Source: a phage. Taken from it: 64,000 nucleotides of DNA. Positions 244-40,142 of the stretch are shown one piece after another. Under the pieces are notes generated by a model. The model was not told the DNA's origin and ran no database searches. It saw nothing but the letters and a program-made list of their open reading frames with translations. Position 1 is the stretch's first letter. Each line of letters opens with the position of its first letter. Location: assembly GCA_020241125.1 (NCBI GenBank), contig GCA_020241125.1_4708.1; one strand, 5' to 3'. The position numbers were made by a program, and so were the translations under genes.

Positions 244-274
244 AGGACTTCCTATTATCGAATTGAGGTACGTC

Positions 275-628: not shown

Positions 629-633
629 GATAA

Positions 634-662
634 CCCTCCCACAGCGTAAAGCGTAGGGAGGG
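634..662. terminator. putative stem-loop terminator between convergent genes
   Basis: CCCTCCC (634-640) pairs with GGGAGGG (656-662); 15 nt loop. Confidence 0.35.
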
Positions 663-693
663 CATTTATACCGTCGTTCGATGACTTAATACA

Positions 694-1974: not shown

Positions 1975-2001
1975 ATTGTATTTCCTTTTCTTTACGTCAA
2001 C

Positions 2002-2023
2002 GGTCCCCCTACAACAGGGGACC
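2002..2023. other. intergenic stem-loop
   Basis: GGTCCCC / GGGGACC inverted repeat with 8 nt loop between two minus-strand genes; no U-tract on either side. Confidence 0.3.
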
Positions 2024-2029
2024 TATGGA

Positions 2030-3616: not shown

Positions 3617-3617
3617 T

Positions 3618-5204
3618 TTATTTTTTTCCTCTTAAATTTACTACGTGTTCATTTAATCGAACAACTAATTGCACAAGCTGCTGACGGATATCTGCTGGAC
3701 AAAGCATCAATCCTTTACGGTCAGCTGGGACTTTCTCAAGGATTTCCGGGCCTGCTGCTGAAACATCCCAGTCCCATTCACAAAACGCATCGGCCACCAT
3801 GTTAATACCGACAACCGGTAAAGTTGTACGTTCATCTTCATACATGGCGTGTGGATACAATTTATTGACAGTAATGATCTCCTGTGGTTTTAATTGGTGG
3901 ATAATCTGATAAACATCGTCGCGTTTGACCTGGATACCTACGGTCAGCGCGGCCAGTTGAGGAAAACCCCAATGGTCTAACAAACAAGCTGCGATCGCTA
4001 ACGCTTTTGCCTGATGCACGGCTTCAATCGGTGCCAGACTTCTCGCCGGAAGATGGCTATCAAGCAACCATTGCGCCAGTGCTCGGCATCCGCGGTTAAT
4101 TGGTTTTAACTCAACGGTGTCATCGTGTTTAGCGTACGTGTATCCGTCGTAACGTTTTGCGATACGCGCATACATGTCTTCAACTTTACCGTAAGGTGCC
4201 GTTTCGTCGACGTCGTGCAACACACGTTCCATCTGGGTAAGATACGCAATGTCGAGAATGAGTACACGTGGTGAACGTTTATCTTTCACCATCAACGCAT
4301 CAATCACGCCTTGACTGTCTTCATCTTGCGCATTCCCTCGCGGCGTTTTCTCGCGAATCGGTCCGCTGAAACGTCGTTCCGTACAAAGGTTATTCACATA
4401 GCTGAAGATCAGTGTTACTAGATGCGTACAACTCACTAACACCCCATCTTTAACGACAGGCTGTACAGCTTGGTCCAAGTCGCGTACGGCGAGACGGCGG
4501 ACGATGGCTTGTGAACGCAACCAGCCGGGCACTTTCTCCGTCGACATGTAATCCACGGTCATCGACAGCGTGATCTTTTTATCACCCGTCTGTGCGCGGA
4601 TATAGTCTTCCAGTCGGTCGTAAGCGGCGATATCATGAATGCGTGTTTTATACATCAACGACATAGCCACTTCTTCTTTACGAACCGTTCCGTACGTTTT
4701 CCCTGCGTCAATCAGAAACTCTGCCCAAATCGGCACCATCAGACGGACGTAGATCGCTAACGCCGTTAACTCAACGTAATCATTTCGTAAATAGGTTTTC
4801 TCAGGTATGTCATCCTCACCTAATGTTGTTTTCATGTCCGGTGGTAATTTTACCCAACCTGGGGTATTACACAATGCCAGAATCTCTTCGTACACAACCG
4901 GTTTGTAAATTTCACCAACAGCGCGACTCAACTCCTCCATTTGTTGTTGTGGAGCAATGTAGTTATCCATCGCTTCACGTGCTTTAACGAACCCTTCGAA
5001 GATGTCGTCAATTCGACGTGGGTTCTTTTGTTCTATCCAGGCGAGATACTTGTTAATCTCCCGCATCTGATTGCTAGCCATATCCCCATCAATCTTGATG
5101 TAACCCTGACCTGAAAATTCCACAGTACGTCCATCACGGTGTTTGATGAGATAGTGATCCAGCTTTTCTTTTCCTTGCGTCGTAATGACGGGCACTATGT
5201 GCAT
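3618..5204 (-). CDS. hypothetical protein
   Basis: Track ORF runs to 5339 with a GTG start and an Arg-rich N-terminal extension that overlaps a promoter-like motif; probable true start is internal Met 46 (MHIVPVITTQ...) with GAGG upstream. Start coordinate is approximate. Confidence 0.55.
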   Translation of the reverse strand: MHIVPVITTQGKEKLDHYLIKHRDGRTVEFSGQGYIKIDGDMASNQMREINKYLAWIEQKNPRRIDDIFEGFVKAREAMDNYIAPQQQMEELSRAVGEIYKPVVYEEILALCNTPGWVKLPPDMKTTLGEDDIPEKTYLRNDYVELTALAIYVRLMVPIWAEFLIDAGKTYGTVRKEEVAMSLMYKTRIHDIAAYDRLEDYIRAQTGDKKITLSMTVDYMSTEKVPGWLRSQAIVRRLAVRDLDQAVQPVVKDGVLVSCTHLVTLIFSYVNNLCTERRFSGPIREKTPRGNAQDEDSQGVIDALMVKDKRSPRVLILDIAYLTQMERVLHDVDETAPYGKVEDMYARIAKRYDGYTYAKHDDTVELKPINRGCRALAQWLLDSHLPARSLAPIEAVHQAKALAIAACLLDHWGFPQLAALTVGIQVKRDDVYQIIHQLKPQEIITVNKLYPHAMYEDERTTLPVVGINMVADAFCEWDWDVSAAGPEILEKVPADRKGLMLCPADIRQQLVQLVVRLNEHVVNLRGKK

Positions 5205-5254
5205 AACAACCTCTTTTCGCGGTTCCCTGTTAAAACGTCTTCTGTGACGTCTAC

Positions 5255-5295
5255 CACAAAGGTAATATAAGCGTGAATAATTTTGGATTCCGGCT
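5255..5295 (-). promoter_or_regulatory. early-promoter-like motif, copy A
   Basis: Plus-strand AGGTAATATAAGCGTGAATAATTTTGG; minus-strand reads TATATTACC after an A/T-rich block. Confidence 0.4.
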
Positions 5296-5408
5296 GAGTT
5301 ATCGCTCAGCATGCAAGGCATCCCGCCGAAGCGAGACACCTTGCACTAACGGAAAATATTCGCGTTACCTTCTGAATCGAGGACTCAGAATGCGATGCTA
5401 AAGCATGA

Positions 5409-6200
5409 TTAGAACGCTAAGCCATCAAAGGCTACGGACGGATCATCGTCGTCATTTGCGCTTGGCGCATCCCAACGGGTATCAGGGGCCGCTGAAGCCG
5501 AACTTGATGCGTTAGAGTTACCGTTGTACTGGCCGTTACCAGCATTACGGTTACCGCCGCCGTTGTTATTGTTACGGTTATAGCTATTGTTGCCACCATT
5601 ACTTACGCTACGGCTTTCACCGTCGAAATTGGTTGCGAGGATGCTCGGCAACACTGCGCGATGAATACGTACAAATTCCAACGCACAAAGCGGAGAAACA
5701 ACCCCGATCTGTAAAGGTTGCCCAGACTCATCAACCAGAGCGTGGAAACGCGGTGGCTTGAATACGAATTGGATGTTCGGTTTTTGGTACGCGGTTACAG
5801 CGATATATACCGAACCATCATCGTTCTTACCAACCCATGTTGTACTTTCGGTAATCTGTTTCTTCTTACCTGGATTATTGCGATCGTCGATAACCTTTTC
5901 GTTCTTCATCGCAAAACGTTGGCCTGGCTTACCCTTAGCAACCTGCTCGAGGATCGCAAGCAGGTTATAGAACGCGTATGAACTCATGCGTGCCCAAATG
6001 CTTTCGGCGCGACCCTGCTGGTCTTTACGACCTGTATAAACCGTGATGCGCGGTTGATTCTTAGCAACGCTAATTTTCAATGAGGGGATTGAATTACCGC
6101 CCTCAACCTTTTCGTCCGCCCACAGTTTCCAGTTGTTGTCGTCATACGCTGTAGGAATAATGTTTCCTTGTGGTTTACTGCCCGAATTCCAATTGCTCAT
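5409..6200 (-). CDS. hypothetical protein with SSB-like architecture
   Basis: 263 aa: about 190 aa globular part, then a G/N-rich linker (NGGNNSYNRNNNNGGGNRNAGNGQYNGN), ending in an acidic tip DDDDPSVAFDGLAF. Confidence 0.5.
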   Translation of the reverse strand: MSNWNSGSKPQGNIIPTAYDDNNWKLWADEKVEGGNSIPSLKISVAKNQPRITVYTGRKDQQGRAESIWARMSSYAFYNLLAILEQVAKGKPGQRFAMKNEKVIDDRNNPGKKKQITESTTWVGKNDDGSVYIAVTAYQKPNIQFVFKPPRFHALVDESGQPLQIGVVSPLCALEFVRIHRAVLPSILATNFDGESRSVSNGGNNSYNRNNNNGGGNRNAGNGQYNGNSNASSSASAAPDTRWDAPSANDDDDPSVAFDGLAF

Positions 6201-6273
6201 TTTCAGCCTCGTTACGTAGTGTGAATCAATTTCTGGTTCAGATGATAGTCAATATTAGTTAAAAATTACAGCC

Positions 6274-7071
6274 TCAGCGGAACATGTCCAACAGAAAACG
6301 TTTTGCGAAGGGGTCACGTAACTGGTTGACACCAAAGCGTGTACGGTCTTCCGTTGTTAATGGATTCCACTGACTCTGTTTCGCAAGATCTAACAGCATC
6401 CTTTTTATTTTCACCGGCCCGCTATTGAACTGTACGGCTTGGTCACCGAACGTTCCCAATGTCATCTTTGTAAATGGAAGGTTCGCAACCTCTGGACGAT
6501 CCCCACCAGTAAGTTTGGTCGACCACTGATGTTTTCGTTTCAAGGTTCCGGTATGGCTCTCCACCAAAATAAGTTCACCAAAACCGGTTCTTGCCAACAA
6601 GTCAGAAACATAGTGCGTGGTGATATACGATGTCTTGGTTATCGTGGGTAATTTACAATCCATCGATTCGATATTAGGGAGTCGATCTACAGACGCCATC
6701 AACCCACGATAAAGTGTAGCGAGTCCTTTTTGTTTTTCGGTGTGTGGCTCCTTATGTATAGCGTGCGGATAAACACGCTTTATTGACGCATAGGTTGGCG
6801 CATATATCCGCAAACGAATATGGGGAATGAGTTCATTCACCAACTGCCTTAGCTGCAGTAACTCGTTTTGAAAATCCCCTGTTATCATCGATAACGGTAA
6901 TTTATGTTGTTCAACGTCTTCAAAGCTTTCAACGAAATTGCGTGCTAAAGTACGCAGGTTGAACAACCAATCCATCGGTGTTTCTGGCTGTTGCTGTACT
7001 GCTGATAGTGTTGCTGACGTCCCTACCGATAAAGGATAATCACCTAACGTGCGGGCGTACATATTGCTCAT
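6274..7071 (-). CDS. hypothetical protein
   Basis: Track ORF 6274-7107; likely start at internal Met (MSNMYARTLG...) preceded by AAGAAGGAG. Confidence 0.5.
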   Translation of the reverse strand: MSNMYARTLGDYPLSVGTSATLSAVQQQPETPMDWLFNLRTLARNFVESFEDVEQHKLPLSMITGDFQNELLQLRQLVNELIPHIRLRIYAPTYASIKRVYPHAIHKEPHTEKQKGLATLYRGLMASVDRLPNIESMDCKLPTITKTSYITTHYVSDLLARTGFGELILVESHTGTLKRKHQWSTKLTGGDRPEVANLPFTKMTLGTFGDQAVQFNSGPVKIKRMLLDLAKQSQWNPLTTEDRTRFGVNQLRDPFAKRFLLDMFR

Positions 7072-7090
7072 ACCCCACAACTCCTTCTTA

Positions 7091-8233
7091 TCATGGCAAC
7101 GTATCAAGCCAAGCAGAAACCTTTAAGGCATCAACGTTCGGGTATTTATTACGAATGCGTTCGACCAACAAACGCTTAACGTTGTCCTTTGTCAAGTCTC
7201 CACCTTTCTCGATAACGTTATTGACAAAACTGTTCTTTAATAGCGACTGGTTGTTCTTGGCGTCCGTTTTAATTGACCAAACGAAGCCTGGATACAAAGA
7301 AGGGATAGAACGAAACGTTTTCGCCGCATCGTCTTCCTTATCGCAGCGTATTCGGATATGATCACCCTTCTTCAATGGAGCCAATTCCCGTTCCAACACA
7401 CGGACAATTTCATCTCCAACAAGACCATGCAGTTTTATCGTCTTGTAGACATCTGCTTTCTTGTTTTCAACAAATTCCCACTGGTCGTTAAACGTTTCCG
7501 TTAACATATAACGGAGATACCCTTTTGGACCTTCTTCACCGTGCGCCAAGCGACCGAACGAACCGCCAACCATGATACGTCCTTTCTGGGATTGTAAGTG
7601 AATATGTCCGCTCACGATCCATCCCTGGGTCTTCTCCACCATTGCGTTATACGCATCGCTGCTATGAACACATGTCGCTTTTAACGCTTCTGGTGGAAGC
7701 TGATATTCAAACGCACCGTGCATCAGAATGAAGCCCGGCGATCCCTTCTCATCAATAAGTCGGTTCACGGCTGACAACGTCACATCCGGGTCGTGGCTGT
7801 AGTTATCTGGAAGATAAAGTACTTTTAAACCAAAGTCTTCATCAACCATGCAGAGGTCATCGTAATAACGAACTTTCGCTCCTATCTCCATGACCTCGTT
7901 CTGTTCAACGAACCACTGACTTTGCTTCTGGTCGTGTAAGTTGGTACCCTCAAGAAAGATCAACGTAATATCGTGTTTTCTTGCATACCGTAACAACCAG
8001 GTACCCCAGGCACGAACAGCAACCACGTCACTCGTCACAAACGTCGTGATACGATCGAAGACATCACCACTGAACGTAATCACATCAAGCAGCGCAGGAT
8101 CTTCTTTTGTAATGTAATAACGCAGCTGGCTAATCAGGTTTACTGTCGGTGTTTGACGATGGATAAAGTGAATATCCGACAAGTTGATTCCACGTAATAC
8201 CCCAGGCGTTTTATTTCGACTGAAGTCTCGCAT
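7091..8233 (-). CDS. calcineurin-like metallophosphoesterase, possibly SbcD/Mre11-type nuclease
   Basis: Ordered motifs LSDIHFIH (D-x-H), SGDVFDR (GD-x-x-DR), EGTNLHD (GNHD-like), MHGAF, GHIH (GH-x-H). Confidence 0.6.
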   Translation of the reverse strand: MRDFSRNKTPGVLRGINLSDIHFIHRQTPTVNLISQLRYYITKEDPALLDVITFSGDVFDRITTFVTSDVVAVRAWGTWLLRYARKHDITLIFLEGTNLHDQKQSQWFVEQNEVMEIGAKVRYYDDLCMVDEDFGLKVLYLPDNYSHDPDVTLSAVNRLIDEKGSPGFILMHGAFEYQLPPEALKATCVHSSDAYNAMVEKTQGWIVSGHIHLQSQKGRIMVGGSFGRLAHGEEGPKGYLRYMLTETFNDQWEFVENKKADVYKTIKLHGLVGDEIVRVLERELAPLKKGDHIRIRCDKEDDAAKTFRSIPSLYPGFVWSIKTDAKNNQSLLKNSFVNNVIEKGGDLTKDNVKRLLVERIRNKYPNVDALKVSAWLDTLP

Positions 8234-9015
8234 CAGAATTCCTCTAAGTTGCTGCTGCTAATAGTCCCCGTCGTAGACGGCATGTTTCTACTACCCACCG
8301 ACGCAGTTGTTGAAGAGGTTCTGGCTAGATTCAATCCGTTTAATAACCCACACTCTTTTACCGTACGACGTGAACCATCACGAACGTCATAAAGAGGTAC
8401 GTTATAATGGTCAAAAATCCGAAGCCATTGCACGTAATCAGCAACAACATGGTCTTTGCTTTCATTCGGGGCAAAGCGATCAAGCTGATGGTCGACGTAA
8501 GCTTTAGCGCTTTCAGGATTGAAGTTATACTGTCGACGTGCTTTGTCCACCATCGCGAGGAAACATGTATTGGGGTCACGATTGATGTATGAACGCGTCC
8601 GGATAAAGATAGCCGGTACCGTAAACAGAACCTTGTTGTTATTCCCATCAGCAACGATGTTAACCGCACGATGCGGTTGGCCTGCTATCTTACACCAATC
8701 GTGAACAATGGTGCTATTACTCAGCATCTCCGCGTATTCAGGATCCTGGGAAAACATTCCTGCGAACGGATACAAGAAATGTTTAACGAACAGCGATTCA
8801 GGCAGGATGTTGGGACGCGTCATCTCCTGTAAACCTTTTCGTAGAAGCTCGCTATTGTCTACCAGCTCCTGCCACATGTCCGGTCGTGTTTTCGGGATGG
8901 ACGGATCCTGAGCGCGGCGAATGCGCTCTTCCTCATTTACAACCACTACCCCAGCCGGATACCCCAATAAATCCGTTCCTTCGCTAACGTTGCTGTTAGT
9001 TTGGCGCGCCTTCAT
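8233..9015 (-). CDS. hypothetical protein
   Basis: 260 aa track ORF. Confidence 0.5.
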   Translation of the reverse strand: MKARQTNSNVSEGTDLLGYPAGVVVVNEEERIRRAQDPSIPKTRPDMWQELVDNSELLRKGLQEMTRPNILPESLFVKHFLYPFAGMFSQDPEYAEMLSNSTIVHDWCKIAGQPHRAVNIVADGNNNKVLFTVPAIFIRTRSYINRDPNTCFLAMVDKARRQYNFNPESAKAYVDHQLDRFAPNESKDHVVADYVQWLRIFDHYNVPLYDVRDGSRRTVKECGLLNGLNLARTSSTTASVGSRNMPSTTGTISSSNLEEF

Positions 9016-9403
9016 TTACTTCCTCCTGCCACTTGATAAAATTACCACGCTCGGATCGCAGAACACCACCCAGATCGTACGATATACCTTTCTCTGTGAC
9101 AATCCCCCCAATCTGGAGATCAACACGTTCCGTCGTCGGATCGATATACTTGACACGGACTTTCAATTCCACGCGATCGTAATAACGCATTAAATAATCA
9201 TACAACATCCGGTACGTCGCATCTTCCAATTTGGGTGCGCTATACTGCGACGTTGCAATGAGGTACGGTAGTGAAACGATGGAACCTTGATAGCAATACG
9301 ACTGGGAATAATTCGATATTGCGAAATTGGTCATTAACCCATCCAGCTTTTTACCCGACGCGGTTAAAAAGCTCGACAGTCCCGGTAACGGATTCGATGC
9401 CAT
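8996..9403 (-). CDS. hypothetical protein
   Basis: 135 aa ORF with AAGAGGAG 6 nt upstream of ATG. Confidence 0.5.
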   Translation of the reverse strand: MASNPLPGLSSFLTASGKKLDGLMTNFAISNYSQSYCYQGSIVSLPYLIATSQYSAPKLEDATYRMLYDYLMRYYDRVELKVRVKYIDPTTERVDLQIGGIVTEKGISYDLGGVLRSERGNFIKWQEEVNEGAPN

Positions 9404-9416
9404 GAGGAACTCCTCT

Positions 9417-9890
9417 TTAAGCGTAATTCATTCCAACCAATCTATCGTAGTTAGGCATATGCCCTAACTCCAGTTCGACGGGCATGGATACATTGGTGCG
9501 TGGTGCGTAAAATGTTCGCGTATGCATATCGATATACCCACAGTCCAAATAAACAATATCGGACAACTCCGCTGGATGTTTAGGTGCGGGAATCTTTAAG
9601 CGATTGTAACACTCAAGCTGCCACCAGGCATGAAAAAAGTTATTGTAAGCGTACGATTTACTGTTAGCAACTTTAAGTCCGTAGATCACCCATAACGCCG
9701 CCATGAAGTTGGTCGCGTTAATTCGCATCGGTTGTTCATTATTGAGCATGTACGTGTAGGTAAACAACGGTGTGTTACCATCACCGAAACGTCCGACCAA
9801 GGTATTGTTTGTGCGTTCGACCTCAAAGGAAAAATGCTGGCTGCTATTGCCATCAAAATGGATCATTCCGTTCTCCTCAAGCTTTTTCAT
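9417..9890 (-). CDS. hypothetical protein
   Basis: Track ORF 9417-9956, but the first 22 codons overlap the hairpin and U-tract at 9923-9971; internal Met start (9890 or 9866, the latter with GAGGAG) more likely. Confidence 0.45.
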   Translation of the reverse strand: MKKLEENGMIHFDGNSSQHFSFEVERTNNTLVGRFGDGNTPLFTYTYMLNNEQPMRINATNFMAALWVIYGLKVANSKSYAYNNFFHAWWQLECYNRLKIPAPKHPAELSDIVYLDCGYIDMHTRTFYAPRTNVSMPVELELGHMPNYDRLVGMNYA

Positions 9891-9922
9891 TTCATAGAGT
9901 GGTGGAAATTCGTAGAAAGTTA

Positions 9923-9971
9923 CAAAAATAAAAAAGAATGGGCAGCCCCTCCCCACCCGAAGGTAGGGAGA
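9923..9971 (-). terminator. intrinsic terminator with UUCG tetraloop
   Basis: Minus-strand RNA folds CUCCCUACC-UUCG-GGUGGGGAG (9 bp), followed by a U-run (UUCUUUUUUAUUUUU). Confidence 0.5.
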
Positions 9972-9985
9972 GACCGCAAATATAC

Positions 9986-10450
9986 TTAAACCAAAGCTGC
10001 GATAACGTCGTTAACATTACGGCCTCGCAACTCTGCCGCTAAACGAATAACTTCATCCAGGGAACGGTTTGTACGAATCTTGGCCACTTTCCAATTTTCA
10101 GGATACTGTTCGAAGTTAAGCAACCAAGTCATTACCTTTGCTTGTTCCATACCGTTGAGTTTGATTGTCGTGCGCGGATTGGCTTTGAACCACTTCTTGC
10201 TCAGCTGCGCCATACGGCGAACAGGGTAAGCGTAAGCGCGAGTCCAGTCTTTGGACAGATTGTCGAGTAATTCACAGTAGCTGTTGTCGTAGTCTTTGTT
10301 GATACGACGTAATAACCAGTTGGCGGTCATCTGATAAAGTTTATCATCTTCACGTAACCGCATACCCGCTACTGCTAAATAAATGATAAGACCTGCGCCC
10401 AGGATGAGAGACAGGATAAACAGAATTTGGGTTTCTTGTGCTAAAGTCAT
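9986..10450 (-). CDS. membrane-anchored protein with single N-terminal TM helix
   Basis: N-terminus ILFILSLILGAGLIIYLAVAG is hydrophobic; early-promoter-like motif B upstream. Confidence 0.5.
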   Translation of the reverse strand: MTLAQETQILFILSLILGAGLIIYLAVAGMRLREDDKLYQMTANWLLRRINKDYDNSYCELLDNLSKDWTRAYAYPVRRMAQLSKKWFKANPRTTIKLNGMEQAKVMTWLLNFEQYPENWKVAKIRTNRSLDEVIRLAAELRGRNVNDVIAALV

Positions 10451-10535
10451 TTTACTATCCTCGGATTTCGTTAGGATTTAATTTCCAATATAAGGGCAAT
10501 GTGATATGCCTTATACAGTCGATTGATGTTGTACA

Positions 10536-10572
10536 TCACTTAAGTAATATAGCCGTGAAAAATGTTGGATTA
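10536..10572 (-). promoter_or_regulatory. early-promoter-like motif, copy B
   Basis: Plus-strand TAAGTAATATAGCCGTGAAAAATGTTGG; minus-strand TATATTAC core about 95 nt upstream of the 10450 start. Confidence 0.45.
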
Positions 10573-11406
10573 ACGTGTTCTCCTATCACGATGCGTATAC
10601 GACTGAAGACCGATGTCCATATGCGGTAACGTCAGCGTCTGCCAGATCTGTCGTGCGTAGCGATCGAGCGTATGATCGTCAGTAACACAATCGACGGGTT
10701 CGATGAGGTGGGTCGTATACTGGCTTTTCTCAGAGAAAGGTTCGATGTTAGCTGTATCGCCTAATCCGCTTTTCACGGTGAAGACAAGACGTGTGACGAT
10801 CATCGCCTTATGCTGCTGTTCATTATAACGAAGGCTGCGGTATACGGCATAGCTTCCTCCCTTTAAGCTTCGGGTATAACGAAGGTCGGAGGTCGTCTCG
10901 GAAATCTGATACAGCATCCAGTCCAACGTATCACGCCAGTACGCATCATCCACATCAGGAACTGTAATACCATACCGCGTAGGTAGCAGTTCTAAAAGCA
11001 ATTTATAAAGTCCGCGACGCAGACCATGCTCTTCTGTTTCCGATAAACCGTTTCCAACGTAACGTGAAATACGTGTACGTAAATACGTACGGATGAACAT
11101 ATTCGCCATCAGTGTTTTCACTCTGCTACTGGTATCCTCAAAGCGATCAACGCTGAAACTCGTTTCAATCAGCCGTCCATTAAAATACAATGCGGCAACA
11201 TACATCGCGTTATTGCTATCACGTTCAATGTTTAAACGACCGCAGATATTAGCCGCGTCGTTCATGGTAAATTCTAATTTATCGTGTTCGATACGATAGA
11301 TAATATCCTCTTGGGTTGCCAGGCTCGCAATGCGACGGTAGCCCGGAGAAGTACGTTTTACACTCATGATTGTCCTCGTTTTCAATTTTAAGATTGCATG
11401 CGGCAT
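10570..11406 (-). CDS. hypothetical protein
   Basis: 278 aa track ORF; TTTATGCCG element and hairpin upstream. Confidence 0.5.
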   Translation of the reverse strand: MPHAILKLKTRTIMSVKRTSPGYRRIASLATQEDIIYRIEHDKLEFTMNDAANICGRLNIERDSNNAMYVAALYFNGRLIETSFSVDRFEDTSSRVKTLMANMFIRTYLRTRISRYVGNGLSETEEHGLRRGLYKLLLELLPTRYGITVPDVDDAYWRDTLDWMLYQISETTSDLRYTRSLKGGSYAVYRSLRYNEQQHKAMIVTRLVFTVKSGLGDTANIEPFSEKSQYTTHLIEPVDCVTDDHTLDRYARQIWQTLTLPHMDIGLQSYTHRDRRTR

Positions 11407-11409
11407 AAA
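11395..11409 (-). promoter_or_regulatory. TATGCCG element downstream of hairpin
   Basis: Minus-strand TTTATGCCGCATG about 45 nt upstream of the 11406 ATG. Confidence 0.3.
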
Positions 11410-11434
11410 CCCTCCCCGCCTTATGCGGGGAGGG
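11410..11434 (-). terminator. stem-loop terminator
   Basis: Perfect 10 bp stem CCCTCCCCGC / GCGGGGAGGG with 5 nt loop; short U-run after it on the minus strand. Confidence 0.5.
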
Positions 11435-11449
11435 CAGCCATTAAATGGA

Positions 11450-12088
11450 TTAACCTAATTTACCACCGGCGATATTGGTGAAATCTTCGCCATCAGGAAC
11501 TTGCAGTAGGATACGTGCCATGTCCCAGTTGGTTAATGTAATTGCTTTATCATCGATACTCAGTTCTGGTAGGTCGAGTTCATGATCATCAAACTCGTAG
11601 GAAATACTCCACGTTTCATCTGTTTTAGGATCGGTTATCAACACACCGTCTGTTACACGCATGTAGTCCGGGTGCAGTTCATTACTGAACGTGCCGAACG
11701 GATCGGTGTAACATTCAGCATACCCCTCGATCTGCTGACGCTGTGCCTTCGTACGTAATTCAGGGCACGCCATGATCAGTTGTCGAGATATGCCGTTTGC
11801 AGCTCGGAAATCCTCCACGGTGTTACATGGCATAACCACATCGTCATGGAAGATGTTCTCCGATTGTCTCAGCAAAGTCTTACGGAGTTCAGCATAGTTT
11901 ATCTGATTGAATGCGTCGAACGTTGCTAACGATTCAGCGTAAAAATGCTTTACGTGTTCGCTTGCGCCGCCGAGGCTATTCATCAGCTTGTGGCCGTACT
12001 CCATAAAGCTTTTATCGAGACCGGAGGACATTTCTCCGAACCTCAGTGCACGATAACTGTCTCGTCCACCTGTAAATATTTGCGCCAT
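11450..12088 (-). CDS. hypothetical protein; possible RNA polymerase beta-prime region F / bridge-helix fragment
   Basis: 212 aa ORF with AGGAGGA 8 nt upstream, starting 15 nt after the exon 2 stop. N-terminus GGRDSYRALRFGEMSSGL loosely resembles beta-prime DSGARGS...AGMRGL; weak similarity only. Confidence 0.45.
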   Translation of the reverse strand: MAQIFTGGRDSYRALRFGEMSSGLDKSFMEYGHKLMNSLGGASEHVKHFYAESLATFDAFNQINYAELRKTLLRQSENIFHDDVVMPCNTVEDFRAANGISRQLIMACPELRTKAQRQQIEGYAECYTDPFGTFSNELHPDYMRVTDGVLITDPKTDETWSISYEFDDHELDLPELSIDDKAITLTNWDMARILLQVPDGEDFTNIAGGKLG

Positions 12089-12103
12089 TACAGGCGTCCT
12101 CCT

Positions 12104-12346
12104 TTAGCAATGGTTGTTAGTTGCTTCTATTTCGTCAAGATAAGGTTCTACGTCATCGCCCTCCACGAATTCGTTGAACCAACAGTCAATAGTGGAAATA
12201 ACCGGTGACTGGTGTTCACATTTCTTAGATACCTTAAAAGGTACGTTATTATCCATCATGCCGAGTTCGGGTCGAAAACGCCCGAAATGTTTCGCAGTCC
12301 AAATGTCTGGGACGATATGGTTGTTCATTGCGTCGCCGTCAAAGTC
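12104..12346 (-). CDS. non-virion-type RNA polymerase beta-prime-like subunit, exon 2
   Basis: Begins DFDGDAMNNH...MMDNN, matching the beta-prime NADFDGDQMAVH and LMMSTNN motifs; track ORF 12104-12349. Confidence 0.65.
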   Translation of the reverse strand, partial: DFDGDAMNNHIVPDIWTAKHFGRFRPELGMMDNNVPFKVSKKCEHQSPVISTIDCWFNEFVEGDDVEPYLDEIEATNNHC

Positions 12347-12696
12347 CACATATCTTCAGTATGAATCGCTACTTCATACCCGCAGCATTACCTGCAGCTC
12401 CTGGTGTTACCAGGACGGAGAGATCATCTCATCACCCACGAAGGGTGTTCCGCGCTACCCTCAGCGAATTCGAGGGACATGATCGTTGAACCTTCCACCG
12501 ATAATCGGTGGCTAGGCTGCTGATTAAACATTGTACGTTGGGGTGGCATCCTGGTTCAGGACTGTCGTTGAAGCCTCCCAACATCCACTCACTTATTTCC
12601 GCCTTATCGGCTCCCATAAGGGCAGAGTGGCTTTAGCCCGTCTCAGCAATTCACGGAATTCAAGCTCTTCCTTTCAGAAGGCAGGGCCTCATCTGA
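12347..12696 (-). other. putative group I self-splicing intron (no ORF) in beta-prime gene
   Basis: About 350 nt between GYNA (exon 1) and DFDGD (exon 2); read-through hits a stop. Exon 1 ends in U, insert ends in G. Contains GGUUCAACGAUCAUG with complementary AGAUGAUC downstream and several compact hairpins including a UUCG tetraloop. Confidence 0.55.
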
Positions 12697-13947
12697 AGCA
12701 TTGTATCCCTTAAGGATCATCACGCTTAACCCGATGGTATTATCCTGCGGATCGCGTTTAACCTTGGTGATTTCAAGACATTGGTTACTGCTTCGGTCAA
12801 GTGATGGGTTTCGAACAAAACCGCACACAATCCCATCGAACGGTGTATCAGCAATAAGCTCATCGTGCAGCTCACTCATCATCGGATGATAATTACGGAC
12901 ATGTTCCGCAACGAACGCACGTGCTGCTCTCGGTGAATAACCACGATGGAATAACTTGGATTGGATATGTTCTTTATTGGTTAAAGTAAATGGTGCGTAT
13001 GGGAAATGCAGATGATAATAACGATGGTTCGCTGTTATCGAACTGATTACAGTACGCGTGGTGAATGGATGTAATGTACCTAATATGTTTTTACGTGTGA
13101 TACCTTTCTTCTTACCGATGAACTCATCGAAAATCGCCGCATGGTATTGCAGTAGCTTCAATTGCACTTTCGCCATCCAGTTTTCTTTCTTTCTGGCGCT
13201 CAAAGGTGTTGTTGGGTGATAGATACTATTCAACGTACCGATAGCATCGATCGCACCTTCCATTTTGCTATCCGCATAACGACCGGTTGGCGTATTCTCG
13301 ATAACGAACATCATGGCCGCAGGAAAGCTGATATACTGACTGAAGAACTTATCACGATGGATACGGATGAATTCTCGTAGCGTATCAACTTTCTCCGTGT
13401 TCTTCGGTCCGCGTAACGTCGGTCCTTTATACAAGATCTCCATGATGCGATCGAAGTTCTGTATAAAACTATTTACACCGCGACGTATCCCGAATACATC
13501 GAATTGCTGCTCCAGATAGTTCTTGAGTTCGATGGGTCGTTTTACATTTGGACGGTAACTGGCATCAATGAGCCACGTCATCGTTTCAAAGCTTTTGATA
13601 TTCAACTCGCTTGCCAGCACGAGATGGACCAACGGGTTAATGAACGCATCAATTCCTTCAGGAACACGCGCCCAAACCGTCGAACGAATCTCTTGTTCTG
13701 CTGGATAGGTTACAACCGTTTTACAGTTCGGACACACCGTGCCGAGCAGCTCACCACGATTGTAGAAACCACAACCACATTGTGGCGTGATATCCAACGT
13801 ATCGCTGGAGTAAACACGGGTGATAAAACTGTTTAATTTCTTCTTCTCTTCGACGACTTTTGTATCGTAATCATTCAACAAAATCGGCGTGAAAGGAAGT
13901 TCTGCGAGCTGTCTATCGAAACTCACGATATCGAGCATGATGGCCAT
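12697..13947 (-). CDS. non-virion-type RNA polymerase beta-prime-like subunit, exon 1
   Basis: Zn-finger CGCGFYNRGELLGTVCPNC; RKNILG...TRTVISS (beta-prime RQNLLGKR..SGRSVI); GFVRNPSLDRSS (NRAPTLHR); ends GYNA. Track ORF 12643-13947 includes intron read-through. Confidence 0.65.
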
Positions 13948-13989
13948 GGGGTATCTCCTACAAATGAAAAAGAACGTTAGGACGTATAA

Positions 13990-14013
13990 GGGAGGGAGGT
14001 TGCCCTCCCTCCC
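13990..14013 (-). terminator. stem-loop, terminator or processing site
   Basis: 10 bp perfect stem GGGAGGGAGG / CCTCCCTCCC with 4 nt loop, between the 631 aa gene stop and the beta-prime gene RBS. Confidence 0.5.
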
Positions 14014-14039
14014 GTCAGATTACATCGAACGTTCTTCCA

Positions 14040-15935
14040 TTAGAACAGGTTGAATGCCCCACCCATGTTGTTAACGCCAACATTCGGACGATCGCTACGT
14101 GCGTAGATGTTACCGGAGATGTTACCCAGACCACGAGCACGTGCTGCCATGTTACCACGAACAGCGGTACCTGCCAGATGCTGGATGTTCTCAGGACGGA
14201 TGGTGAAGCCAGCATCAGCAGCGGCCTCGATCAGCGCCTGCAGTGCTAACGGATCGAAGTCGTAACGCATTGCCCAGCCGGTTTGTTCCCAGCTACCAGA
14301 CAGAACACGATCAATGATTTCGTGACGAGCGACAACACGCTGAGACATCGTCATATCGGTACGGTCGAAGCTGTCTTCCCAAGCTTCTACGGTATCCGGG
14401 TTAGTGATGTTCATCATGTACAGATCGTCCATATCACGAATATCGTGACGGTGACCATCCTGGTGGTTATAATGACCCAGCGGGATACGGTTACCGGTAG
14501 CGTAGACCAGTGGTGCGCCGTACTGATATTTCTTGCTGAAGCAACCCAGGGTAGTATCATCGAAGGCACGGAAGAGTGCTTTGTAACCTTCGGAGATTTC
14601 CCGGACTTCACCTTCAACTTTGCCCGTATAGATCTTCTCAGCCGCCGGGATCATACGCAGCAGCCAGCTGTATTCGCCTTCTTCCGGTACGTCGATAGAA
14701 ATCAGCAGAGACGGATACAGTACCTGTTGCAGGAACTTGTAAATCTGCTCGTTGGTTTGAGTAGACAGATCCAGCGGTGCGGTAACTTCCGGATCCAGTA
14801 CCATCGCCAGAGCACCCGGGTTATGCGGACCAATACCACGAGCAGCGTTGCTGATTAAAGACTGTGCCCACGCCATACCGCTGTTCAGCGTAGCGATGGT
14901 GCCAATCAGACCCAACACGAAAGTGTTCGGCGTGAACGCATCCAGCTCCAGCGGGTAAGCGCTGGTCATCACGTAACGCGGTTGGTATTGTACAGTCGGC
15001 GGTACCGGATAACCGTTAACCAGAACAGGGCCTTGGTTGAAGGTCGGGTTCTGCGGGCTGTAGGTCAGGTCAATGTAACCGGTGGTTGCGACCAGACGCT
15101 GCTGACTATCGTAATCGCTCATCGCTTGACGGATGCGGTTAGAGATAGTTACAGTGATGTCAGAACGCACAGGGTTACCAACAATATCGCTGTCCTGCAT
15201 ACCGCTGGTGTTGTACTGAACGCTGCTGATTGGCTGATCGCTTGCCATCATGCCCAGGTTGAACTGCGGCAGACCCAGTTTATCGCCGAGACGGATTTCG
15301 ATCGCGGTTTGGATTGCGTTATCTGCAGCAGACAGCAGGGTGGTTGCCAGATGCGCAGATTCAGCGGTGATTTCATTGGTCACCACAGCCAGACCAGCGA
15401 TACGAGCAGTACCATTAGACTTACCACCGATAGCTGCATACATTGCCGCCATGACTTCGTTGATGAACGTACCGTTCAGGTTATCAACCCAGGTACGCGG
15501 CACCAGAATGTTACCATGCGGGCCTTGTTCTTCACGACGCGGCAGCGGAGCCAAACCGGCAACCAGTGGAAGCACATAACCGAAGAAGTGGTTATGGTCA
15601 CCAACTTTTGCACCGCTCATAACAACCAGGGTCGGATACGGTACACTGTATTGGTTAGGATCGACGGTCACCATGATGAAGTCGTCTTTGAATCCTTTAT
15701 CTTCCAGTTCTTTTTCCATCAGACGACGGAGATTCAGTACCTGCTCGGAGCCAGTATTACGGCTAATACGACGGCTCAGTGTACGGTTGATCGTACGCAT
15801 CGTATGAGTTACTTTAGGCTGGCCAGCAAAATCTGCAGCGGTTTCCAGCGCCTCATCAGCACGTTGTGCGGTGCGGGTTTCAGCTGCACGAATTTCTACA
15901 TTATCGTTACCGTTATTACGTACGTCTAAGCCCAT
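14040..15935 (-). CDS. hypothetical protein; candidate phage-nucleus shell protein (chimallin-like)
   Basis: 631 aa; AGAGGA RBS; early-promoter-like motif C upstream; sits directly upstream of the beta-prime gene, the arrangement recalled for phiKZ gp54-gp55. No sequence motif verified. Confidence 0.4.
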   Translation of the reverse strand: MGLDVRNNGNDNVEIRAAETRTAQRADEALETAADFAGQPKVTHTMRTINRTLSRRISRNTGSEQVLNLRRLMEKELEDKGFKDDFIMVTVDPNQYSVPYPTLVVMSGAKVGDHNHFFGYVLPLVAGLAPLPRREEQGPHGNILVPRTWVDNLNGTFINEVMAAMYAAIGGKSNGTARIAGLAVVTNEITAESAHLATTLLSAADNAIQTAIEIRLGDKLGLPQFNLGMMASDQPISSVQYNTSGMQDSDIVGNPVRSDITVTISNRIRQAMSDYDSQQRLVATTGYIDLTYSPQNPTFNQGPVLVNGYPVPPTVQYQPRYVMTSAYPLELDAFTPNTFVLGLIGTIATLNSGMAWAQSLISNAARGIGPHNPGALAMVLDPEVTAPLDLSTQTNEQIYKFLQQVLYPSLLISIDVPEEGEYSWLLRMIPAAEKIYTGKVEGEVREISEGYKALFRAFDDTTLGCFSKKYQYGAPLVYATGNRIPLGHYNHQDGHRHDIRDMDDLYMMNITNPDTVEAWEDSFDRTDMTMSQRVVARHEIIDRVLSGSWEQTGWAMRYDFDPLALQALIEAAADAGFTIRPENIQHLAGTAVRGNMAARARGLGNISGNIYARSDRPNVGVNNMGGAFNLF

Positions 15936-16000
15936 TTGGGATTCCTCTTTTCTTAAACTTTATTAAATGACGTCATTGAATCAGCTTCTACTCGCTCATT

Positions 16001-16045
16001 CACCTAGGTAATATAACCCTGAAATTTTTTTCAATATTGGTGTAA
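16001..16045 (-). promoter_or_regulatory. early-promoter-like motif, copy C
   Basis: Plus-strand CACCTAGGTAATATAACCCTGAAATTTTTTTCAATATTGG; minus-strand TATATTACC about 70 nt upstream of the 15935 start. Confidence 0.5.
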
Positions 16046-16189
16046 CCACATTGAACGATATAAACCCCTAGGCGAACGCTGCCGAGAAGCAACATTCTTT
16101 CTACATATAATCAGGATATGTCTGTAAACTTTTACTTCTCTTATTGAGAGTAATGTCATATCCGTTTACCATCTTCTTACGGAGTTCGT

Positions 16190-17284
16190 ATGTTTCGTGT
16201 TTTAAATAACCTCCCGCGAACATCATCGGGTGTGCAACCCGTCCCTCAGAAAGACTATCTAATACGCGAAGTTCAAAGAAACCTACAGACAATCCAGAAC
16301 CACTATCAAGGTTTTACCTTCGCGGTTCAGAGCGATCACATCCTTGCGTTGCTGCTCGCACAGCTCCCTATGAGATACGACATCTCAGTACAAACTTACT
16401 ACGACATGATTCTCGATCTTACTCCAGAATTGGGTAATCGTGTTAAGTTGACAACATCAAGATACGCGGGTAAGTTATTCGACGGTGCTTTCTATCCGGG
16501 ATTGCACGAAGCTATTATCGCAACCGGTGAAAGTCGTCTTATTTCACGTGACGTTCTTGACAACTGGCGTAATTGGTCACCGGTTAGAATCGTGACGCAC
16601 CCATACGCAAATCTTCGTTACATTCCTCTTCACCGAAAGCCGGTTGAAGAAGGACGAGGTTTTGCGGTCATTATGGTTGATGTACCTTTATTAGCGCTAC
16701 AGTATCGAATGTGGTCTTTGGTCATGGGTCATAACGTCGACGGCAAATGGGTGGTTAAAGAACCGGTTACAAGCTTCCTTGCGAGTTTTCCGTTGGTTAA
16801 CGCATTATACTCACACAACGATGTTGTTATACGCAATCGTTGTTTGTGGGTATCTCCGGCTAAGAATCCACTCAAATCACCAATTTACGTTAACGACCTT
16901 GATAACGTATTCAGTCAAGTCGTTCTGTCCGTACAGCATCATTTATTACGAAGAAGACGAAGCTACACCGACATGCTTAAACAGATACCGAGTTTATACG
17001 GGGATCAGTACCAAGCAACCCGAATGGGTTACACCGTCGATCTTCGGCAAACGCGATGGGCAAGGGATCTGGGTTGTCTGTCATTATGGCAACAACTCGT
17101 CACGTTGCAAAACGTATCTGAAAGCGTCGGGTTCAGCAGTCAAATCGATAATGACCTGTACCGTGCTGCCGACCGGAGTCTAAAAGAAGGTAACTGGGAG
17201 TCCTCTCCGTTACCTGGCGATTTAAGACGTGAAGTTATCGCACAGGTTGCCGACCTCTTAAAAATTCTTCCCGCTGGTGCATAA
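16190..17284 (+). CDS. hypothetical protein
   Basis: 364 aa ORF; ACGGAG RBS; followed by hairpin 17305-17334. Confidence 0.55.
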   Translation: MFRVLNNLPRTSSGVQPVPQKDYLIREVQRNLQTIQNHYQGFTFAVQSDHILALLLAQLPMRYDISVQTYYDMILDLTPELGNRVKLTTSRYAGKLFDGAFYPGLHEAIIATGESRLISRDVLDNWRNWSPVRIVTHPYANLRYIPLHRKPVEEGRGFAVIMVDVPLLALQYRMWSLVMGHNVDGKWVVKEPVTSFLASFPLVNALYSHNDVVIRNRCLWVSPAKNPLKSPIYVNDLDNVFSQVVLSVQHHLLRRRRSYTDMLKQIPSLYGDQYQATRMGYTVDLRQTRWARDLGCLSLWQQLVTLQNVSESVGFSSQIDNDLYRAADRSLKEGNWESSPLPGDLRREVIAQVADLLKILPAGA

Positions 17285-17304
17285 TAACCTCCCTCCTCCC
17301 TTGC

Positions 17305-17334
17305 ATCCTCCCAACCCGTAAGGGAAGGGAGGAT
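17305..17334. terminator. bidirectional stem-loop terminator between convergent genes
   Basis: ATCCTCCC / GGGAGGAT 8 bp stem enclosing inner CCC-GTAA-GGG; pyrimidine run upstream. Confidence 0.5.
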
Positions 17335-17350
17335 GGGGTGGTGGGTTATG

Positions 17351-19504
17351 TTACTCTGCGGTTTCTTGCTTCGGTAAATAACTTGCTGCGATGTCTTGGG
17401 CTAACAATGTATTGTTTTTATTCGAGATGAAAATACCATAACTTTCCATTAACGCGTAATACGAACGCACGAGCGTAGAGATCAATCGACGAATATCCAT
17501 ACCTTGAATAAAGATATCAGGAAGCCCGGAGGCTTCGATCACCGGTAATGGTATCGTTAAGTTGCTTATCGTTTTCTTATCGTTACGTACAATCCAATCA
17601 CGGAAACGTTGTTGTAACCCTTTATCCTCCCAGGAATCAATCCAATCGTTAAGAAGCGTTTTGTTCTTCGTCGCCAACGGCACACGAACCCCAACATAGG
17701 GTGGTTCCTGGCAATGGCCGTACGATTGAGCAAACACCTCTTCCCACATATCGTAAGACTGTTTCGTTACTGCAACATGCGGTTTCACTTTAACACGTGT
17801 TAAGAAATCAGGATCACCACGTTTCATGGACTCAACGATTTCGTTTTCTAACGAGATAATATCGTCAAGAACCAATCGAATGCTGATCTTCTCGTTACGT
17901 AACAGCTTATCCATGATACCACACATCATGCGTTCAACACGTTTGACGATCATTTTTGGTGCTGACGCATCGCGCATAACCGGACCTTTCAATTCCAGCT
18001 TCGGTGGATTGATAGGAACCCCTTCACGCATGGTCATGTAACCGTAATAGTTTTTACCCATCGAGGTTAACGACAGAATCAAGAACATATATTCGTTCTT
18101 CATTTCCATCACGTACATATGCTCTTTCGCCACACCGATATTACCAGAACACATCGCCATCAGATGAACCGTAATCTGCGTAACCAGATAGATAAGCGTG
18201 TTTGCTAAGCGCGTCGAAACTGGATTGATCTCCATATTTCCAAATCGCCACTGAACCCACTCCTGGCAGGTAAACACCGTCGAGTCGGTATCAGACAACA
18301 CACCCACTTCACGGATTGCTGATGGGAAAGCATAAACACCAGCCGGTTGGTTCTCGGTACGCCAGAACGCCATAATCAAATCAGCATAGCTTTGAATACG
18401 CTGTAGCATTAATTTTGTCGTTGCTGCAGTAAGACGATAACCAAGCTCATTTCCTTTTTCTAGCGCTACGTAAATCGCTTCCCCATTCAAGAACTCCGTA
18501 CATTGTGCTGTAATCCAAGCGACCGTGTTGTTATCCATGGAAGCAATAATGGCTTTAGCCTCTTCCATCGTTTCAACAGGTTCGGATGCCAGCTCGCATA
18601 ACGAATCAAGAAAATCTCGAACAAATTCAGGATTAAGCTCACGTAACGAGTACAGGTTATTGCTATACATGTAGCAGGCGCGTTCCAGTGGGGTTAAACC
18701 GGTAATTAACTCCCGGATAGTCAGTTCTTTCTCTGGGTCGAAAGTATATCGATGCAAGCATTTCGATACGTTAGCCCAAACCTCTTCCGGCGTAGGGTAA
18801 TGTAGTTTGTATTTTACCATTACCTGTTCAATGGCTTTACGATCGCTGTTGCGGACAATACTCACGATGTTTTCAATTGCGATATCACAATCGTAATAAT
18901 GGAAATTGCCCGCAAGGAAGCGTTCGTTGTTCGCATTGGCTGAACCTGAAGCACAGCGACACGTTGTCGTTAAACTTGGATGCGCAATTGGATTATAAAA
19001 AGGGTTAAACTTGGACGCCTGGGTTCCTGACAAACTGTTGTTATCTAACTTGGTGTTGGTTTGTCGTTTATCGTGTAACTCAGCTTCATCTTTACGTCCG
19101 TGTGCTTGCGCTATCGACATTTGTTTCTTTTGTTTCTTACGCAACTTACCGTTTTCAACCGCAAAGTCGCTTAGCACACTGGAACGTGTTTCACGTGGAT
19201 AACAGTTAGCCCACACCGGCGTGATAATTAAATTATTTTCTTTAATATCATTGAAGTATTGGCTGAACTTGATGACTTCTTTTTCTCGATTTCCTTCGGT
19301 GCGCTGTGTTAATACAAGGCAGTCGGGATCAACCATCCCGTATTTTCCACCAGGACGAACCGTATCAAGGACAAACTGCAACGCTTCCTGCTGTGATATC
19401 CCACGCATGCGCATTAAGAACAGGGTATAATCCTGTACCGCTTCTTTGGTCATATCCAACGTACGGCCATATCCGTTTTCATCGTAAAAGAACGGATTTT
19501 CCAT
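17351..19504 (-). CDS. hypothetical protein; candidate divergent family-B DNA polymerase palm domain
   Basis: 717 aa; LSDTDSTVF (motif C-like YGDTDS), YSNNLYS about 120 aa upstream (motif B-like NSLYG), DNNSLSG further upstream (weak motif A-like); GGAGG RBS. Confidence 0.45.
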   Translation of the reverse strand: MENPFFYDENGYGRTLDMTKEAVQDYTLFLMRMRGISQQEALQFVLDTVRPGGKYGMVDPDCLVLTQRTEGNREKEVIKFSQYFNDIKENNLIITPVWANCYPRETRSSVLSDFAVENGKLRKKQKKQMSIAQAHGRKDEAELHDKRQTNTKLDNNSLSGTQASKFNPFYNPIAHPSLTTTCRCASGSANANNERFLAGNFHYYDCDIAIENIVSIVRNSDRKAIEQVMVKYKLHYPTPEEVWANVSKCLHRYTFDPEKELTIRELITGLTPLERACYMYSNNLYSLRELNPEFVRDFLDSLCELASEPVETMEEAKAIIASMDNNTVAWITAQCTEFLNGEAIYVALEKGNELGYRLTAATTKLMLQRIQSYADLIMAFWRTENQPAGVYAFPSAIREVGVLSDTDSTVFTCQEWVQWRFGNMEINPVSTRLANTLIYLVTQITVHLMAMCSGNIGVAKEHMYVMEMKNEYMFLILSLTSMGKNYYGYMTMREGVPINPPKLELKGPVMRDASAPKMIVKRVERMMCGIMDKLLRNEKISIRLVLDDIISLENEIVESMKRGDPDFLTRVKVKPHVAVTKQSYDMWEEVFAQSYGHCQEPPYVGVRVPLATKNKTLLNDWIDSWEDKGLQQRFRDWIVRNDKKTISNLTIPLPVIEASGLPDIFIQGMDIRRLISTLVRSYYALMESYGIFISNKNNTLLAQDIAASYLPKQETAE

Positions 19505-19562
19505 AAATCCTCCAAAAGTTATTTAGTCTGTCTACATCATCTCGTATATCTGTTAAAAAAGA

Positions 19563-19578
19563 AGGACGGCATAAAAAA
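19563..19578 (-). promoter_or_regulatory. TATGCCG element downstream of terminator
   Basis: Minus-strand CTTTTTTATGCCGTCC about 55 nt upstream of the 19504 ATG. Confidence 0.3.
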
Positions 19579-19607
19579 GAACCGATCCAGCCGAAGCCAG
19601 ATCGGTT
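19579..19607 (-). terminator. intrinsic terminator with UUCG tetraloop
   Basis: Minus-strand AACCGAUCUGGC-UUCG-GCUGGAUCGGUU (12 bp incl. 2 G-U pairs) then CUUUUUU. Confidence 0.6.
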
Positions 19608-19643
19608 AAAAAGGATAATAACTGACAGAAAGATATCGATGAT

Positions 19644-19745
19644 GTTCGTGAAACAAGATCTTCTCTCGTGTACAATGATGCTAGATCAGAGGGAGGTTGT
19701 AACACGAGAGGTGGTCCGCCAAAGAAGGAATAAAAAACACGAACC
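19644..19745 (-). ncRNA. structured intergenic RNA element of unknown function
   Basis: Nested inverted repeats: outer GTTCGTG / CACGAAC (19644-19650 with 19739-19745), inner CTCTCGTGT / ACACGAGAG (19664-19672 with 19703-19711) around a 30 nt loop whose minus-strand RNA contains CCUCCCUC. Confidence 0.3.
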
Positions 19746-19803
19746 TATCTTATTTCACTGATGGCACTAACCACTCAAAATATATAGTACCGTATGTAAA
19801 AGT

Positions 19804-20217
19804 TTACTGATTAATCAAGTCGTTAGCAACAATCTTGGTGTAACCCGCCTGATTAAGAATTTGATTAATTTTCGTCACGTCGGTCGCATCCTCAATAACG
19901 ATGCTGGGTTTATAGATCAGCGTCTTGGTAACGACGATTGTACTCTCCTTAATCCAAGGAATCCCTAGAATCACATACTCACCATCGGCTGTAATGACCT
20001 CGACGTAATTGTATTTCGTCGGATCGTTCGGTACACTAGACGGGAGCCGGGAATAAATCTGTTGGTGAATGGCGTCTACATCACGACCGTTACGTACAGC
20101 TGTGCGATAATTGTACACAGCGCTAATTTCTACTCCGTTGAAGTTAACCCCAAGTTCTGGGGCGTACACATCAAAACTCACAACAGAGCCAATCTTTTCT
20201 AAATCAGAAGCTGGCAT
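19804..20217 (-). CDS. hypothetical protein
   Basis: 137 aa track ORF. Confidence 0.5.
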   Translation of the reverse strand: MPASDLEKIGSVVSFDVYAPELGVNFNGVEISAVYNYRTAVRNGRDVDAIHQQIYSRLPSSVPNDPTKYNYVEVITADGEYVILGIPWIKESTIVVTKTLIYKPSIVIEDATDVTKINQILNQAGYTKIVANDLINQ

Positions 20218-30637: not shown

Positions 30638-30742
30638 TGCATTGCCTTCCGCGAGTGTAATCAGGAAGGTAATGTAGGTTTATTTTAATCTCCATTTCGC
30701 GATGATATGACAGTCTTTATTACGTTTACCATCTGAGGGAGC

Positions 30743-40115: not shown

Positions 40116-40125
40116 ATGTAATTCC

Positions 40126-40142
40126 TTTATTACGGCATATAA
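40126..40142 (-). promoter_or_regulatory. TATGCCG element
   Basis: Minus-strand TTATATGCCGTAATAAAGG just upstream of the 40115 ATG. Confidence 0.3.

Follow-up and report, generated by a model that had tools for sequence, protein, structure and literature searches.

Putative early promoters of the virion RNA polymerase upstream of the nuclear shell gene and other genes of a Goslar-like jumbo phage

Shell, polymerase and neighboring genes in the window

The window, i.e. the whole 64,000-nucleotide stretch of phage DNA analyzed here, closely resembles Escherichia phage vB_EcoM_Goslar (NC_048170.1), a nucleus-forming jumbo phage (Chimalliviridae) with E. coli as its host: positions 14000-18000 were 97.8% identical to Goslar over their full length, and the window overall about 98%. 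The gene context was read from the annotation carried over from Goslar. The nuclear shell protein (chimallin) is encoded on the minus strand at 14040-15935 (98.7% amino-acid identity to Goslar gp246). Downstream of it, at 12643-13947 on the same strand, lies the gene for the beta' subunit of the non-virion RNA polymerase, which was identified by its match to phrog_2987 (RNA polymerase beta subunit, E = 4e-115) and by blastn against Goslar, and which is present as an intron-less allele. A separate start site for the gene after the shell gene, located in a 92-nt gap, has been reported by a Goslar paper. Between the shell and beta' genes the minus strand also carries a perfect G/C-rich hairpin at 13990-14013 (GGGAGGGAGGG-caac-CCTCCCTCCC) with no T-run, which could be an attenuator or a processing site. 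Another minus-strand gene, at 3618-5204, was recognized by tblastn as a homolog of phiKZ gp068 (match to PHIKZ068 over 94% of the query, E = 4e-27). The KTN4 copy of this PHIKZ068-type gene is annotated as a non-virion RNA polymerase subunit, and phiKZ gp068 is the sigma-like subunit required by the non-virion polymerase for promoter recognition (PMC13282480).

The window encodes a virion-packaged multisubunit RNA polymerase as well, in the form of homologs of Goslar gp205, gp207 and gp210. Two of the subunit genes lie on the minus strand at 50258-54604 (gp207 homolog, phrog_3148) and 54608-56296 (gp205 homolog, phrog_2986), both families being RNA polymerase beta subunits; the gene at 47689-48399 is the homolog of gp210, another subunit of this enzyme. 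All three proteins were detected in Goslar virions by mass spectrometry (bioRxiv 10.64898/2026.04.21.720040).

Goslar carries two group I introns with HNH or homing-endonuclease ORFs in its RNA polymerase genes, one in the non-virion beta' gene and the other in the virion beta gene (Goslar 168195-169660 and 211571-213755). Both are absent from the window, where the corresponding polymerase genes run uninterrupted (12643-13947 and 54604-54608; ORFs of 434 and 562 amino acids). Adjoining the empty intron site, the segment 11400-12689 was 89% identical to Goslar versus about 98% elsewhere, a divergence that may stem from co-conversion around the homing site or from a recombinant segment. Searches against Rfam at gathering thresholds returned no match in the window.

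Anatomy, statistics and placement of the recurrent element

The window contains exactly four copies of the octamer TATATTAC, each of them on the minus strand, at 5262-5269, 10544-10551, 16008-16015 and 44973-44980. Each occurrence forms the core of an element of about 40 nt which consists of an A/T-rich block, TTTCACGGC or A7TTTCAGGGT, the core itself, five variable bases and TG. The coding-strand sequences of the four sites are ggaatccaaaattattcacgctTATATTACctttgTGg, ttaatccaacatttttcacggcTATATTACttaagTGa, atattgaaaaaaatttcagggtTATATTACctaggTGa and ttattggaaaaaagttgaggtcTATATTACctaacTGa. Numbered from a predicted start at the G of TG, the A/T-rich block lies around -30, the -20 block takes one of two forms (TTTCACGGC or A7-TTTCAGGGT), and the core, TA(T/C)ATTAC, spans about -14 to -7 and is followed by the five variable bases and the invariant TG. 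The upstream blocks are of the A7-TTT kind at the 16008 and 44973 sites, as they are at phiKZ gp054 and gp068, and read AAAATTATT or ATTTTT at the remaining two. An earlier note on this DNA had listed five copies of a recurrent motif; four of them are the sites just described, and its consensus string was only approximately right: the second site reads AGTAATATA instead of GGTAATATA, and the first lacks the T5 run.

Shuffled windows were used to judge how far chance accounts for these occurrences. The bare octamer is not significant in the window (four occurrences versus 2.2 expected; at least four in 16 of 100 shuffles); the evidence comes from the extended motif and its context. The pattern TAYATTAC-N5-TG matched five times in the window versus 0.24 expected, and none of 100 shuffles reached five. 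All four exact sites are intergenic and face the next minus-strand gene (P = 1.7e-5, given that only 6.4% of the equivalent Goslar region is without coding annotation). For a non-circular test, a weight matrix was trained solely on eight Goslar sites outside the window; it placed the four exact sites on top with 48.3, 38.3, 34.3 and 33.2 bits, the best of 200 shuffled windows scoring 22.1 bits. From the core to the start codon the distances are 58, 94, 73 and 124 nt for the starts at 5204, 10450, 15935 and 44849, respectively, close to the 60-130 nt given in the earlier note.

That fifth copy, at 46040-46078 on the minus strand (core TATATTGT at 46054-46047), scored -15.6 bits with the eight-site matrix and -1.2 bits with an earlier matrix built on four Goslar sites. 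Its spacer is 1 nt longer, it has only an ATTGG-A6 block in common with the other sites, and the next start codon, that of the gp213 homolog at 45785, is 262 nt away. A strong intrinsic terminator (45888-45915, minus strand; 12-bp stem and T5) lies between the two. Because of the negative score, the longer spacer and the terminator before the next gene, the fifth copy is not supported and not credible as a promoter. The 165-nt stretch 45876-46040 (minus strand) between the head-protease gene and the gp213 homolog, at whose end the terminator sits, folds with -59 kcal/mol (z = -4.8); compared with Goslar, the differences in the terminator are confined to the loop, and there is one further substitution elsewhere in the stretch. 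The stretch might represent a structured 3' UTR or, should the weak fifth copy fire, give rise to a short RNA.

Matches with one mismatch at 4230, 38066, 46727 and 63375 were discarded since they lie inside genes or antisense. Another, AATATTACAATTATG at 40171-40185 (minus strand), lies in a divergent gap upstream of the structural genes gp219-221. Because it contains TATG, the signature of phiKZ late promoters, it is nearer to a late promoter and may be one.

A site absent from the earlier list, TACATTACCTTCCTG at 30662-30676 with the core TACATTAC at 30676-30669, is probably a variant promoter (30657-30698, minus strand). It is intergenic and ranked directly behind the four exact sites with 17.5 bits in the eight-site matrix, a level of 17 bits being reached anywhere in only 2.5% of the shuffled windows. 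Its predicted start at 30662 lies 24 nt upstream of the ATG at 30637 (gp225 homolog).

In phiKZ and phiR1-37 transcription starts 6 nt downstream of the element (PMC5312081). From this published geometry, the starts (G) were therefore placed at 5255, 10537, 16001 and 44966, and probably at 30662; the first four correspond to Goslar positions 160777, 166055, 172964 and 201930, and the last to 187625. By analogy with phiKZ and AR9, the G of the TG would be the first transcribed base.

The predicted promoter of the shell gene (15996-16037, minus strand; core 16015-16008, A7 tract 16031-16025; 38.3 bits) is near-identical to that of phiKZ gp054, and its putative start at 16001 lies 66 nt before the ATG at 15935, which makes the shell gene the first gene of the unit. 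The candidate at 5250-5291 (minus strand; core 5269-5262; 34.3 bits) precedes the gp068-like gene as the first gene of its unit, with a predicted start at 5255, 51 nt before the ATG at 5204. It is itself preceded by a hairpin at about 5342-5311, and the phiKZ gp068 promoter is likewise preceded by a hairpin. The highest-scoring site (10532-10573, minus strand; core 10551-10544; 48.3 bits) faces a gene for a 154-residue protein of unknown function, the Goslar gp182 homolog (9986-10450). A strong intrinsic terminator with a 16-bp stem and a T-run (9942-9977, minus strand) directly follows this gene, so that the unit from the predicted start at 10537 looks like a single gene closed by this terminator. 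The fourth putative promoter (44961-45002, minus strand; core 44980-44973; 33.2 bits) would start transcription at 44966, 117 nt before the ATG at 44849, and drive a three-gene unit of unknown function, the homologs of gp214-gp216 (44370-44849, 43852-44313 and 43313-43852).

The element in Goslar, phiKZ and other phages

In the Goslar genome, all ten exact copies of TATATTAC are on the minus strand. Eight of them lie between genes (P = 1.1e-8), are directed at the gene that follows and have the same flanks; they precede gp004, gp105, gp159, gp175, gp182, gp246, gp214 and gp200. The two copies inside genes (gp003 and gp201) lack the flanking motif. Enrichment in intergenic regions, the lack of which the earlier note had named as a refuting outcome, was found both in the window (4/4) and in Goslar (8/10). 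Together, exact and one-mismatch pattern searches gave about 13 such sites in the 237-kb Goslar genome.

The one-mismatch searches of Goslar brought up a second core class, TACATTACC-N4-TG, with the same -20 blocks. It has five copies, all on the minus strand, of which four are intergenic and one lies in a tiny annotated ORF. They are found at Goslar 15053-15067, 43252-43266, 49718-49732 and 86691-86705, the fifth being the counterpart of window 30662-30676. The tiny ORF is gp047, which may be a mis-call; another copy of the class lies in an 854-nt unannotated gap (Goslar 14972-15825).

A block of about 40 nt, TTAATCCAACATTTTTCACGGCTATATTACTTAAGTGA, is common to the upstream regions of the gp182 homolog in the window and of Goslar gp004, gp105 and gp159, while the sequences on either side of it do not align; gp182 and gp004 encode unrelated proteins. 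Since the block precedes unrelated genes and similarity fades on both sides, the element is a discrete module and not a duplication. This bears on the reading that the copies are scars of recombination or duplication, or else operators for a phage or host DNA-binding protein, which we regard as most unlikely. Regarding a scar, the genes downstream are not paralogs. An operator would draw on the inverted repeat around the core in the TTTCACGGC class, where a TTCAC-N15-GTGAA dyad would suit a dimeric binder: its arms on either side of the core match perfectly over 5 bp at Goslar gp004 and gp105, and over 4 bp (TCAC/GTGA) at gp159 and at window 10532-10573, around the core at 10544-10551. The dyad is, however, missing from the A7 class and from phiKZ, and it is the asymmetric core and the TG that stay constant from genus to genus. 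In addition, every copy is oriented the same way with respect to the gene that follows it, which fits a promoter and not a symmetric operator.

Relatives found in IMG/VR were all at 96-99% identity, and footprinting of the region upstream of the shell gene with Goslar and two IMG/VR contigs gave no information, the intergenic region being 99% identical throughout. An exact 17-mer scan of IMG/VR returned Goslar-like contigs and one 515-kb contig; the latter match is due to chance, as the flanks are missing.

The earlier note took TATATTAC for the core of the phiKZ early promoters, and this was borne out. Positions 1-50000 of phiKZ contain seven exact copies. All seven lie on the plus strand, between genes and at a distance of 35-73 nt before a plus-strand gene, and each has A/T-rich blocks ahead of it and N5-TG behind it. 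One precedes PHIKZ054, the gene for the phiKZ nuclear shell protein (chimallin), for which differential RNA-seq had placed the early-promoter motif at the primary start site (PMC8244752). The two shell-gene promoters, ATTGAAAAAAATTTCAGGGTTATATTACCTAGGTGAA in the window and AATGAAAAAAATTTGAGATTTATATTACTAAATTGAA in phiKZ, are nearly superimposable, and the shell proteins themselves are only about 25% identical. A corresponding element, AAAAAAAATTTGAGATCTATATTAC, lies 33 nt upstream of phiKZ gp068. With the same element upstream of both the shell gene and gp068 in phiKZ, two of the four putative window promoters, those of the shell gene and the gp068-like gene, are positional orthologs of phiKZ early promoters.

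Six other phages, all of different genera (phiKZ, PhiPA3, RAY, Noxifer, Eowyn and RSL2), likewise have the element before their shell gene. In Xanthomonas phage LucasX, inspection of 116 nt before the shell gene revealed no motif. When nine promoters were aligned without gaps, TATAT-AC was invariant, and so was the TG at positions 6-7 past the core. This TG, the G of which would be the predicted start, is the same throughout the window, Goslar and phiKZ sites.

Early promoters of phiKZ serve the virion polymerase, and 28-32 of them have been mapped (Ceyssens 2014 as cited in PMC8244752 and PMC10914365). They share with the window sites the core TATATTAC, N5-TG, the A-tract/TTT blocks around -30 and -20, and the intergenic, gene-facing placement. 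The Goslar-like phage differs in its host, E. coli, in its 47% G+C genome, in which the AT-rich element is consequently more conspicuous, and in its smaller number of copies, about 13 over 237 kb. Two of its features, the predominant -20 block TTTCACGGC and the core variant TACATTAC, did not turn up in those parts of phiKZ that were inspected. In AR9, which likewise has a virion-packaged multisubunit polymerase, early promoters read AAATATATATTAT-(6N)-G+1 (PMC5312081), i.e. a TATATTA-type AT-rich core, six bases and an initiating G; AR9 differs in that it is not nucleus-forming, has uracil-containing DNA and has a core that ends in T instead of C within a longer AT run. The early motif of 201phi2-1, determined by ONT-cappable-seq and likened here by its description, is AT-rich, lies about 10 bp upstream of the start and has conserved -10, -20 and -30 positions; it too has few copies (six detected) at conserved positions relative to homologous genes (PMC11512511). 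Coliphage N4 follows the same logic of an injected virion-borne polymerase that reads a small dedicated set of early promoters, but its enzyme has a single subunit and recognizes a DNA hairpin, and no comparable short hairpin is present at the window sites.

Candidate polymerases and early transcription

Early promoters of jumbo phages that encode their own polymerases are AT-rich, about 10 nt long and centered near -10, and they serve the injected virion polymerase (PMC7598289). The TATATTAC elements of the window are very probably of this kind, i.e. early promoters read by the injected multisubunit virion RNA polymerase of the phage. The motif with its statistics, position and orientation, as well as the orthology with phiKZ, are direct observations. 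We infer the enzyme that reads the element, the exact starts and the timing by homology. The earlier proposal of candidate early promoters is well supported for four of its five copies by motif statistics, genomic context and phiKZ orthology.

The host enzyme would be an obvious competitor, with TATATT acting as a sigma-70 -10 hexamer, TTGAAA as the -35 hexamer and the A-tract as an UP element for E. coli RNA polymerase. TATATT is indeed one position off TATAAT, and TTGAAA or TTGGAA is found upstream at three sites. The spacer between TTGAAA and TATATT, however, is constantly 13 nt instead of 16-18 nt, sites of the TTTCACGGC class lack any -35-like hexamer, and a consensus scan called no sigma-70 site at any of the five loci. 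Neither the conserved AC after TATATT nor the TG at +6/+7 after the core is a sigma-70 feature, and the same element works in phiKZ, whose genes are reportedly transcribed without the host polymerase (PMC10914365). We therefore consider recognition by the host enzyme extremely unlikely. Sigma-70-like matches were, if anything, fewer than in shuffled sequence (22 versus 33.5 +/- 6 in 1-20000; 8 versus 12.5 +/- 2.8 in 40000-50000), a scarcity that fits a genome not relying on the host polymerase.

It is very unlikely, too, that the elements are middle or late promoters of the second, non-virion polymerase, or are shared by both phage polymerases. The idea draws on the shell gene of phiKZ, which has an early and a middle promoter (PMC8244752), and on 201phi2-1, where some genes of the non-virion polymerase are without early promoters. 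Yet the middle promoters of phiKZ are weak AT-rich/TACT motifs at about -22 (PMC7598289, PMC8244752), and its late promoters consist of TATG overlapping the start with little upstream conservation (PMC7598289); the element matches neither. TATG is missing from the predicted start of all four sites, whose upstream region is strongly conserved. Moreover, two of the sites drive genes of the non-virion polymerase itself, so that expression is needed before this enzyme exists.

If the elements are read by the virion polymerase, this enzyme would upon injection start at these sites and transcribe leftward units. Early units would then comprise the shell gene together with the non-virion beta' gene, the sigma-like non-virion subunit, and several small genes of unknown function.

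The start of the shell-gene transcript in Goslar has been mapped with RNA-seq at 5 min post infection (mpi; PMC10541120). In the figure legend of that study the displayed sequence begins 91 nt upstream of the shell-gene ATG, the underlying data being ordinary RNA-seq and ambiguous in this respect; no other publication comments on where this transcript begins. Position -91 lies inside the A-tract, about 25 nt upstream of the predicted +1 at -66. It is compatible with -66 if it is a choice of display, and in conflict with it if it is a true 5' end. A single-nucleotide start-site map for Goslar-like phages was not found in the searchable literature.

In the same Goslar data set, 175 of 249 genes were detected at 5 mpi (PMC10541120). 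About 13 promoters may be too few to account by themselves for this early expression unless the transcripts extend very far; read-through over long distances or a further class of early promoters may contribute. A related and rather doubtful idea is that Goslar-like phages have two or more functionally distinct sub-classes of virion-polymerase promoters. They would be distinguished by the -20 block (TTTCACGGC versus A7-TTT) and by the core (TATATTAC versus TACATTAC), and could set promoter strength or timing (immediate-early versus delayed-early); another possibility is that the -20 block is recognized by a specificity factor of its own, likewise injected. Most early expression would in this case come from very long read-through transcripts or from an undescribed class of early promoters.

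The type of promoter described here is already known from phiKZ; the window sites are ordinary representatives of it, establish no new principle and will not surprise a specialist. Their reading as virion-polymerase promoters gives a map of expected early starts for a Goslar-type phage, with five sites in the window and about 13 across Goslar, which serves as the E. coli model for nucleus-forming phages. Such a map may be of use in genome annotation and in phage engineering, for example for early-expressed selection cassettes like those built on the phiKZ consensus promoter, and in reading RNA-seq and knock-down experiments. The putative promoter of the injected polymerase has been kept almost base for base between phages with shell proteins at only about 25% identity, and kept in the same place, before the shell gene and before the gene for the sigma-like subunit of the second polymerase.
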